A DNA stretch of 64,000 bases. Source: Escherichia phage vB-Eco-KMB38. Shown piece by piece: positions 10,114 to 10,976 of this stretch. The stretch lies in sequence record OR525701.1. One strand, given 5' to 3'. The number at the start of each line of letters is the position of its first letter. The first letter of the stretch is position 1. Below the pieces are notes generated by a model. That model worked only from the letters and a program-made list of their open reading frames with translations. It had not been told where the DNA came from and ran no database searches. The position numbers and the translations under genes are program-made.

Positions 10114-10142
10114 CCAAAAAGCCCCAACCTTTCGGAAGGGGC
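10114..10142 (-). terminator. Rho-independent terminator
   Basis: gccccaacctttcggaaggggc with U-run on minus strand; near-copy of hairpin at 9578. Confidence 0.55.
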
Positions 10143-10194
10143 TAAGCCTTGCGGCAACCTTGTCGGGGTTCCACCTGCTAAGGCAAGTGTTTGT

Positions 10195-10286
10195 ACGAAA
10201 CGCCGGGATTCGAACCCGGTTATTAAGTAGTTGACGCTACTCAATATTTTTAAAAGGCCATATCTCGACCATATCCGAACGTTCCG
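10195..10286 (-). ncRNA. tRNA-like structured RNA (canonical T-arm and acceptor pairing, aberrant D/anticodon region)
   Basis: Minus-sense CCGGGTTCGAATCCCGG T-arm; 5' CGGAACG pairs with 3' CGTTTCG; interior does not fold as a standard cloverleaf. Confidence 0.3.
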
Positions 10287-10456
10287 TCAAAAACGCTACT
10301 CGGCTTACGGCAAAGATATTTCCTCGAATCGATAATTCTGTGCGCCGTTTCTGCTGTGAGATAAGGGACTTTAAGATGTCAACTCATGTACGCCTTAAAG
10401 TCGGGTCTTATTCAGGGAACATCAGTCCGACGACTTGCCGGTAGCGACCCGGCTTC

Positions 10457-10801
10457 TTATTTTGGCATATCATCAATTTGCTCTCGACGCCGACGCCATA
10501 GATTAATCGCTTCATTAACACATTCGGCGTTTGGTATATGACGGCAATAATATAATGATTCACGTTTCTGGAACCGATGTTGCAACGGGATTTCGTTTAA
10601 AAGGTCTTTACGGTCAAAGTATTCAAAACTAGTTAACCCAGAACGGTTTTTAATGAACTTCCAATGTCCAAATTCATTTTGAACATAGATGTAATCGGCA
10701 TGCTGATACAGCGAATTAATCAATCGATGAGAAATAACTGTATCATATTCGTTAAAATAAAACGTTAAATCATGAACTACCAGATAAACATTGCCTTTCA
10801 T
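10457..10801 (-). CDS. Hypothetical protein
   Basis: ORF-track start at 10849 would overlap tRNA-Arg; internal Met MKGNVYLVVHDL chosen. Confidence 0.45.
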   Translation of the reverse strand: MKGNVYLVVHDLTFYFNEYDTVISHRLINSLYQHADYIYVQNEFGHWKFIKNRSGLTSFEYFDRKDLLNEIPLQHRFQKRESLYYCRHIPNAECVNEAINLWRRRREQIDDMPK

Positions 10802-10819: not shown

Positions 10820-10896
<77 letters not shown>

Positions 10897-10902
10897 AATA
10901 TA

Positions 10903-10976
10903 TGACCCAGACCAGATTCGAACTGGTAACCTTTCCCTTATGAGGGGACTGCTGCTAACCGTTGAGCTACAGGGCC
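10903..10976 (-). tRNA. tRNA with CAU anticodon (Ile2/Met type)
   Basis: Minus sense GGCCCTG...GTCCC-CTCATAA-GGGAA...ACCAG-TTCGAAT-CTGGT-CTGGGTC-A; adjacent to tRNA-Arg as in the T4 Ile-Arg pair. Confidence 0.65.

Follow-up and report, generated by a model that had tools for sequence, protein, structure and literature searches.

The rnaD-rnaC locus

The DNA analysed here, called the window below, is a stretch of 64,000 nucleotides (nt) from Escherichia phage vB-Eco-KMB38 (sequence record OR525701.1), a T4-like phage of the genus Mosigvirus, and the subject is a group of small RNA genes at 10116-10460 on its minus strand. It is very probable, in our view, that this region carries the orthologues of the T4 genes rnaD (species 2 RNA) and rnaC (species 1 RNA) and, behind them, a conserved trailer and an intrinsic terminator; both homology to the T4 genes and synteny with them support this identification. 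Across 352 nt the identity to T4 is about 90%, and the matching part of T4 is annotated as tRNA-Arg, rnaD and rnaC. In a pairwise alignment, the minus strand from 10116 to 10460 followed the T4 module through rnaD, rnaC, the trailer hairpins and the terminator. The order along the minus strand is tRNA-Met, tRNA-Arg, rnaD and rnaC, and rnaD is immediately upstream of rnaC. Species 2 and species 1 RNA have been known from phage T4 since the 1970s, and the finding is one of already known biology in a genome where the orthologues are unannotated. An earlier sequence-only reading had treated 10143-10450 as a single non-coding element and had proposed for it a tRNA with a long variable arm, a tRNA pseudogene or a T4-style small stable RNA of the species 1/2 type. 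The last of these guesses was right, and so was the placement between an open reading frame (ORF) ending at 10457 and the terminator hairpin at 10142-10121. The feature does lie at 10143-10450 but its true span is wider, and instead of one element it holds two RNA genes, the trailer and the terminator. The parts of the locus are as follows.

10116-10460, minus strand: full feature, a little wider than 10143-10450
10339-10460, minus strand: very probable rnaD (species 2 RNA) orthologue, about 122 nt, from the alignment to T4 rnaD
10333-10338, minus strand: spacer GAAUUA, followed by U10332; AAUUAU is kept in T4-type copies
10194-10332, minus strand: very probable rnaC (species 1 RNA) orthologue, 139 nt, by the T4 annotation
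10191-10331, minus strand: structural core of rnaC, from the covariation-supported fold
10143-10190, minus strand: conserved 3' trailer with small hairpins, from the alignment to T4 and the fold
10116-10142, minus strand: intrinsic terminator, read from the sequence, with a hairpin fold, and kept in T4

Over 371 bases around the feature the window is 100% identical to Escherichia phage PTK, whose record has no feature and no coding sequence (CDS) over the homologous stretch, and the records of RB3 and of Mosigvirus ATK47 annotate an identical 139-nt rnaC. About 800 phage genomes have the homologous region in conserved form. Taken over the whole region, this conservation, the fold z-score and the compensatory changes in the helices are beyond chance. 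Compared with T4, the rnaC RNA is essentially the same (140 of 141 positions identical), has the same length and occupies the same site between rnaD and the trailer and terminator, whereas its surroundings differ: the window has an ORF between tRNA-Arg and rnaD, the phage has two tRNAs only, and the downstream gene is not homologous to that of T4. By this comparison the rnaD-rnaC-terminator module is a conserved island between non-homologous flanks.

Sequence and fold of rnaC

The rnaC set comprised 29 distinct variants from GenBank phages, IMG/VR and metagenomes, sampled from eight genera (Tequatro-, Mosig-, Karam-, Teguna-, Marfa-, Moon-, Gelderland- and Kanagawavirus), and the pair and covariation counts given below refer to 23 distinct aligned variants. 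Two types of long arm were distinguished: type A has the T4-like long-arm sequence and type B, from other genera, a different one. In constrained folds the variants were 141-143 nt in total with a similar layout of the arms, and the fold z-score of the rnaC stretch was -4.8. In the window the elements of the fold are these.

10331-10325, minus strand: acceptor 5' strand (CGAUUCG)
10324-10255, minus strand: long arm
10290-10285, minus strand: tip loop of the long arm, UUGACG
10254-10246, minus strand: A/U linker
10245-10222, minus strand: hairpin 2, with the loop CGUCAA at 10236-10231
10219-10203, minus strand: T-arm, CCGGG-UUCGAAU-CCCGG
10202-10196, minus strand: acceptor 3' strand (CGUUUCG)
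10195, minus strand: U73-like base
10194-10191, minus strand: tail ACAA

The ends of rnaC pair as an acceptor-like stem of seven positions (C-G, G-C, A-U, U.U, U.U, C-G, G-C), which in the covariation-supported fold stacks without a gap on a canonical 5-bp T-arm whose loop is UUCGAAU. Pair 3 of this terminal stem was G-C in 14 variants and A-U in nine, and positions 4 and 5 were U.U in 22 of the 23, the remaining one being Yersinia phage TG1, in which they are U-A and C-G and the acceptor is a perfect 7-bp stem. The T-arm, which the sequence-only reading had correctly noted on the minus strand, has a canonical loop in the variants as well, and two of its five pairs were compensatory. The place of the D-arm is taken by a rod-like long arm of about 70 nt that is closed by AGG...CCU and whose apical 5-bp stem was paired in all variants, with compensatory changes at all five pairs. 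It is followed by an A/U-rich linker of 9-11 nt and by hairpin 2, of 9-10 bp, where eight of nine pairs were compensatory. The 3' tail has an invariant U followed by N-C-A-A, and the Marfavirus copies encode U-CCA.

When the fold was taken as a whole, 90% of the cells were paired compared to 36-50% when the partners were slid by 1-3 columns, 28 of the 52 pairs were altered on both sides, and the observed covariation was reached by none of 500 shuffles. RNAalifold run on the 11 type-B variants alone arrived independently at the same architecture. A covariance model, R1, made from these 11 sequences of other genera without any T4 or Mosigvirus sequence, matched 10191-10331 of the minus strand over its full length with 96.4 bits (E = 2.6e-22), and this was the only significant match in the 64-kb window; together with the identity to T4 at 140 of 141 positions it makes the window copy a full-length homologue of T4 rnaC. 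On this evidence strong purifying selection acts on the sequence, with compensatory changes upholding a fold that is not a cloverleaf. We do not claim this fold as new relative to the literature of the 1970s-80s.

These results bear directly on the two tRNA identities that had been proposed. A decaying tRNA pseudogene, or a leftover without selected structure, would fit a T-arm that lacks a cloverleaf and adjoins tRNA genes. It is extremely improbable, because the sequence is near-identical over the roughly 800 genomes and eight genera, the 28 compensated pairs keep a non-tRNA fold instead of relaxing it, the flanks are non-homologous while rnaC is near-identical to that of T4, and a stable RNA has been shown for T4 (PMC9697503). 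It is also very improbable, though slightly less so, that the 3' 93 nt of rnaC (10287-10195) are an aminoacylated, translating tRNA with a long variable arm. This idea came from the acceptor halves CGGAACG (10286-10280) and CGUUUCG (10202-10196), which are indeed complementary and can form a 7-bp stem beside the perfect T-arm. As a conserved acceptor stem, however, the pairing failed: none of its seven pairs was compensatory, its pair 3 was unpaired in 12 of the 23 variants, the stem is broken in TG1 and in ZX13-type sequences, and the type-B sequence at those positions is unrelated. Instead, two of the bases in CGGAACG belong to the loop and the others form the 3' strand of the apical hairpin, which was 100% paired with five of five pairs covarying. 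The complementarity arises because the true partner, CGUUU, resembles the start of CGUUUCG. The sole candidate for an anticodon hairpin has a 6-nt loop, not one of 7 nt, and this loop is complementary to the tip loop of the long arm.

ARAGORN called the PG7 copy tRNA-Met(CAU), 95 nt, and the G9062 copy tRNA-???(aa), some public records carry tRNA labels, and the Rfam model tRNA-Sec gave 17 bits, but this is far under its gathering score of 47, and nothing in Rfam reached a gathering score at this place. ARAGORN called nothing here in the window or in T4; its only two calls in the window were the tRNAs at 10820-10976, and rnaC in the window did not match the Rfam tRNA model. This agrees with the earlier remark that there was no clean cloverleaf, since of a cloverleaf just the T-arm and the acceptor-like stem are present. 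Moreover, T4 records annotate 139 nt and not 93, and on the Northern blot it is T4 RNAC that accumulates (PMC9697503).

Contact between the two loops

The 6-nt tip loop of the long arm (UUGACG) and the 6-nt loop in hairpin 2 (CGUCAA) are exactly complementary to each other. The six positions were complementary in 23 of 23 aligned variants, and by inspection the six later variants retain these loop pairs. Two of the positions are compensated, A-U having changed to G-C in Marfavirus (UUGGCG/CGCCAA) and C-G to U-A in TG1 (UUGAUG/CAUCAA), and the stems that bear the loops have unrelated sequences in arm types A and B. As judged from the alignment, this is strong evidence that the pairing of the loops is a real RNA-RNA contact. 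The hexamer TTGACG was also considered as a -35 promoter box and was rejected, as no -10 box lies at the proper spacing and, in the RNA, these six bases covary with the second loop.

Two perfectly complementary and covarying 6-nt loops suit pairing in trans as well as in cis. rnaC may therefore form homo-oligomers, the loops pairing between molecules so that the RNA self-assembles head-to-tail into dimers or larger RNA-only complexes serving as a scaffold or container, which we think unlikely, if well short of negligible. In favour of such assembly, the fold implies that the loops would point apart if the long arm, with about 27 bp, were stacked coaxially at the four-way junction on hairpin 2, with about 10 bp. 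ROOL and GOLLD, which are phage RNAs of tRNA islands, form kissing-loop cages, and the loop-loop contact of ROOL was first taken as tertiary and then shown to be quaternary (PMC12286853); RNAs of less than 200 nt also form large assemblies (bioRxiv 10.64898/2026.07.01.735769). On the other side, a rough estimate indicates that a closed intramolecular triangle is geometrically feasible by way of the conserved A/U linker of 9-11 nt and of internal loops within the long arm. We know of no report of a multimeric species 1 RNA, and DNA packaging and assembly of T4 have been reconstituted without RNA. The pRNA of phage phi29 is a phage RNA that, like rnaC, has two complementary loops: it is about 120 nt long, its mutually complementary loops pair in trans to form a ring at the portal, and it is essential for packaging. 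It differs from rnaC in lacking a tRNA-like end, the two are not homologous, and T4 packaging needs no RNA, unlike the phi29 system.

The rnaD gene

When the window rnaD was aligned to T4 rnaD (MT984581, 71033-71150, about 118 nt), the cores were found to be kept and the central hairpin replaced: the 5' 50 nt and the 3' 25 nt are nearly identical to T4, and the centre of about 50 nt differs yet forms a hairpin. As in T4, rnaD is directly upstream of rnaC, with the 6-nt spacer between them. With 13 variants, RNAalifold gave a 5' hairpin with the invariant loop GUCGCUA and a long irregular rod. Two elements can be placed in the window:

10453-10437, minus strand: rnaD hairpin 1, GCCGG-GUCGCUA-CCGGC, preceded by a 5' tail
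about 10412-10362, minus strand: rnaD distal stem-loop, lineage-specific, from RNAalifold

The closing pair of hairpin 1 was G-C in six variants and A-U in six. The distal stem covaries, its sequence being lineage-specific and its pairing kept, and the rod contains an invariant core helix in which GUCGUCGGACUGAUGU pairs with ACA.CAG...CGGCG.AC. The ends differ from those of T4, where the 3' end of rnaD is CACCA and the 5' end abuts the CCA of tRNA-Arg; in the window the 3' end is CACAG and the 5' end overlaps the stop codon of the upstream ORF. The long-range pairing that the sequence-only reading had seen in this part, GGGUCG (about 10450-10445) with GACCCGAC (10408-10401), is complementary as described but is possible in the window lineage only, since it is the variable part of rnaD that supplies its 3' half, and it competes with the covarying hairpin 1.

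Searched alone, rnaD had matches in 734 phage records, none of them from Enterobacter or Klebsiella phages. It is confined to T4/Mosigvirus-type phages, and in the loci of Karam-, Marfa-, Teguna- and related phages that were examined rnaC occurs and rnaD does not. A different element stands at its place in Marfavirus, where a conserved hairpin of about 50 nt (GGGGUGG...CCACCCC) lies between tRNA-Met and rnaC, for example in Klebsiella phage P545 (L008, 1032-1082) and also in loci L011, L012, L014, L042 and L056; it has no sequence similarity to rnaD and its fold z-score is weak (-1.5).

Three further observations concern rnaD. The 9-nt string GAGUAGCGU occurs twice in rnaC on the minus strand, in the long arm at 10302-10294 and in hairpin 2 at 10243-10235, and the loop GUCGCUA of rnaD hairpin 1 (10448-10442) is complementary to the UAGCG in this repeat. 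A loop contact between rnaD and rnaC is conceivable from these sequences; the loop is invariant, and genera that have no rnaD retain the repeat. A terminator scanner called a terminator-like site on the plus strand at 10437-10453 (GCCGGTAGCGACCCGGC and a T-rich tail), which was rejected as merely the reverse complement of hairpin 1 and its A-rich 5' tail; in principle this site could stop antisense transcription into the tRNA unit. A hammerhead ribozyme in rnaD (CUGAUG ... GAAAC) was also rejected, as the flanking strands form a two-way helix and not a three-way junction and there was no Rfam match.

Trailer, terminator and neighbouring genes

The trailer, of which CACUUGC-CUUA-GCAGGUG at 10189-10172 of the minus strand is one hairpin, has a single difference from T4, and trailer and terminator together differ at three positions. 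It is kept in all T4/Mosigvirus-type loci and is absent where a tRNA directly follows rnaC; judged by its sequence, its conservation exceeds what a simple spacer needs. The terminator is GCCCCUUCC-GAAA-GGUUGGGGC followed by UUUUU, with the hairpin at 10142-10121 and then the T-run, and a simple scanner missed it because of an internal UU/UU mismatch. On the other side of the module lie the following genes.

10457-10801, minus strand: ORF of 114 aa, phrog_3355, RB69ORF150c-like (in ATK47), between tRNA-Arg and rnaD
10820-10896, minus strand: tRNA-Arg(UCU), by ARAGORN
10903-10976, minus strand: tRNA-Met(CAU), by ARAGORN

The tRNA-Arg and tRNA-Met genes, which scored 71 and 52 bits with the Rfam tRNA model, would be the upstream members of the minus-strand transcription unit of rnaD and rnaC. 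The stop codon of the 114-aa ORF (10459-10457) sits within the 5' end of rnaD. T4 has tRNA-Arg immediately next to rnaD, and in other lineages a different ORF with the same UAAGAA ending is found. A Pfam search of the neighbouring ORFs gave no matches. The tRNA-Arg(UCU) of the window is very different in sequence from that of T4 (L001, 2427-2501), in contrast to rnaC about 500 nt away with its 140 of 141 identical positions; either the tRNA genes are non-orthologous or the RNA module was recently exchanged. The T4 late-promoter box TATAAATA does not occur on the minus strand nearer than 13887. In the whole window there are 18 copies compared to 8 expected, most of them on the plus strand at 36-51 kb, a cluster consistent with late (structural) genes forming a block there.

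In all eight genera examined rnaC lies among or beside tRNA genes, and the window copy is on the tRNA strand. In Karam-, Teguna-, Gelderland-, Moon- and Marfavirus it is embedded in tRNA clusters, separated from its neighbours by tRNA-like spacers of a few nt, and in Karam- and Gelderlandvirus it begins 6 nt after the CCA of tRNA-Trp and ends a few nt before tRNA-Gly, a spacing that, read from the sequence, is that of a tRNA in a multimeric precursor. Position -1 of rnaC is U in nearly all variants, and the spacer at 10333-10338 of the minus strand is a probable site of endonucleolytic processing.

This context could also mean that rnaC and rnaD have no function in trans and are punctuation of the tRNA operon, that is, a processing signal, an exonuclease barrier or a stabiliser, whose products accumulate solely on account of being compact and tRNA-like; we give this a small chance, about one that a reader should keep in mind without expecting it. 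In T4 and Mosigvirus the two genes are at the 3' end of the tRNA unit directly before the terminator, a tRNA-like end would recruit processing enzymes for the neighbouring tRNAs, and no phenotype of rnaC or rnaD is known (PMC3014915, PMC9697503). However, in Karam-, Gelderland- and Tegunavirus rnaC is mid-cluster or beside CDSs instead of 3'-terminal, there are just two tRNAs to serve in the window phage and yet its rnaC is almost identical to that of T4, and the invariant loops, the covarying loop-loop contact and the conserved arm length exceed what punctuation needs.

Distribution and annotation of rnaC

No copy of the 3' half of rnaC was found in 185,579 bacterial and archaeal genomes. Two pattern scans of IMG/VR, one with the 3' half and the other with the two loops and the T-loop, returned known members and GC-rich false positives only, and a metagenome scan gave 10 loci, all of known types. 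Rfam has no family for the locus, and with E up to 10 it returned just the weak tRNA-Sec match and noise.

In deposited genomes the rnaC locus appears as tRNA-Met, as tRNA-OTHER ('tRNA-???(aa)'), as tRNA-Lys or as hypothetical proteins; records affected are those of PG7 (KJ101592, 75846-75940), SonariX (PQ898399), G9062 (MK373779, 69609-69704), G29 (MK327940) and G4507 (NC_054919). That a short ORF overlapping the region (34-51 aa, on either strand) is a real small-protein gene has next to no likelihood. Such mechanical ORFs are present and many public records put hypothetical proteins over the homologous stretch. The variants, however, have indels of 1-2 nt in loops and linkers, their substitutions are base-pair compensations and do not follow a codon pattern, and the PTK record has no CDS here. 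The earlier statement that the region has no ORF holds in so far as just mechanical ORFs of at most 51 aa overlap it. Because there is no Rfam family, the locus is blank or mis-annotated in most of the roughly 800 genomes, and an RNA family built from the present alignment would cure this.

Comparison with known RNAs

With canonical and class II tRNAs rnaC shares the seven-position acceptor on a 5-bp T-stem, the T-loop UUCGAAU, a discriminator-like unpaired U followed by N-C-A, and the location in clusters with tRNA-like spacers. Unlike a tRNA, it has no D-arm and no 7-nt anticodon loop, it has two conserved U.U mismatches in the acceptor, and about 105 nt are inserted between acceptor and T-arm. 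In the last respect it resembles transfer-messenger RNA (tmRNA, SsrA), in which the ends of a longer RNA also pair as an acceptor beside a T-arm with a large insertion between them, and the 5' end of which is processed by RNase P (PMC3985003). Unlike tmRNA, rnaC has no G3:U70 pair (pair 3 being A-U or G-C), no encoded CCA in most variants, a length of 140 nt, no reading frame for a tag and no tmRNA pseudoknots, and at rnaC ARAGORN called no tmRNA and Rfam gave no tmRNA match.

ROOL and GOLLD are similar to rnaC as phage-encoded structured RNAs beside tRNA genes with loop-loop contacts conserved by covariation. GOLLD expression rises in phage-induced lysis (PMC12286853), and the T4 small RNAs are classed as late (PMC9697503). 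The difference is that rnaC is 4-6 times smaller and that rnaC oligomers are a proposal from the loop sequences only; rnaC has no sequence similarity to ROOL or GOLLD, and at rnaC their Rfam families had no match even with E up to 10.

Proposed function

In T4, RNAC and RNAD are classed as late RNAs and were validated by Northern blot, the probe described being for RNAC, which was shown to be stable (PMC9697503). An RNA of about 140 nt in vB-Eco-KMB38 is a prediction from this homology, and the window rnaD would by analogy accumulate as a stable RNA of about 120 nt. The two RNAs would be co-transcribed with tRNA-Met, tRNA-Arg and the ORF, in keeping with the lack of a late-promoter box nearby. 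As in tRNA maturation, host tRNA-processing enzymes would excise them, RNase P and/or RNase E cutting at ...AAUUAU|CG, and 3' exonucleases would trim back to the acceptor stem, so that stable RNAs of about 120 and 140 nt accumulate in infected cells as they do in T4. The stability of rnaC would come from a tRNA-like minihelix that encloses both of its ends.

The roles of T4 RNAC and RNAD are stated to be unknown (PMC3014915), and PMC9697503 likewise gives the function of RNAC/RNAD as unknown. A possible explanation, which we favour and put forward tentatively, is that rnaC does not decode but imitates the shape of a tRNA: a protein with affinity for tRNA ends would bind its acceptor/T-arm end, with rnaC acting as the decoy or ligand of that protein. 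The partner might be a processing or modifying enzyme of the host, or else a nuclease or transferase of a defence system directed at tRNA acceptor ends. With the two loops locked together, the remainder of rnaC would stay rigid and unlike a tRNA, the benefit would be conditional and host-dependent, and rnaD would be an accessory RNA of the T4/Mosigvirus lineages only. In favour of this explanation counts an evolution experiment with the T4-like phage BW1 on a semi-permissive E. coli host, in which the same single-nucleotide polymorphism in rnaD arose in three of three evolved lines (PMC12685909).

Several points weigh against this explanation. The idea of a decoy rests on shape, on context and on one evolution experiment, in which the change struck rnaD and not rnaC, and in the literature searched we found no experiment that assigns a function. 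T4 deletions of the whole tRNA region are viable on laboratory hosts, from which it follows that any function would be conditional. The T4 annotation has rnaC starting one base upstream of the first acceptor pair and ending in ...GUA, ends that are unlike those of a clean RNase P cut and a CCA-like terminus. As to the structure, the junction nucleotides AGGA and GGCCUU are invariant, as is the core helix of rnaD, and these pairings are consequently without support from covariation; the covariation of the loops fits a contact in cis and in trans equally well.

A bolder version of the mimic is that rnaC is an RNA machine, in which the two loops either lock the tRNA-end mimic in a closed and rigid form or join copies into an RNA-only assembly and which counters host factors acting on tRNA ends. 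We regard it as rather unlikely; if true, it would at last explain what the oldest orphan phage RNAs are for, and it would be a small addition to the tRNA-island RNAs such as ROOL and GOLLD. The fold backed by covariation makes the 50-year-old question of the function of rnaC and rnaD testable, as it supplies the targets for mutation: the acceptor with its two U.U mismatches, the T-arm, the long arm of fixed length and the 6-bp loop-loop contact.

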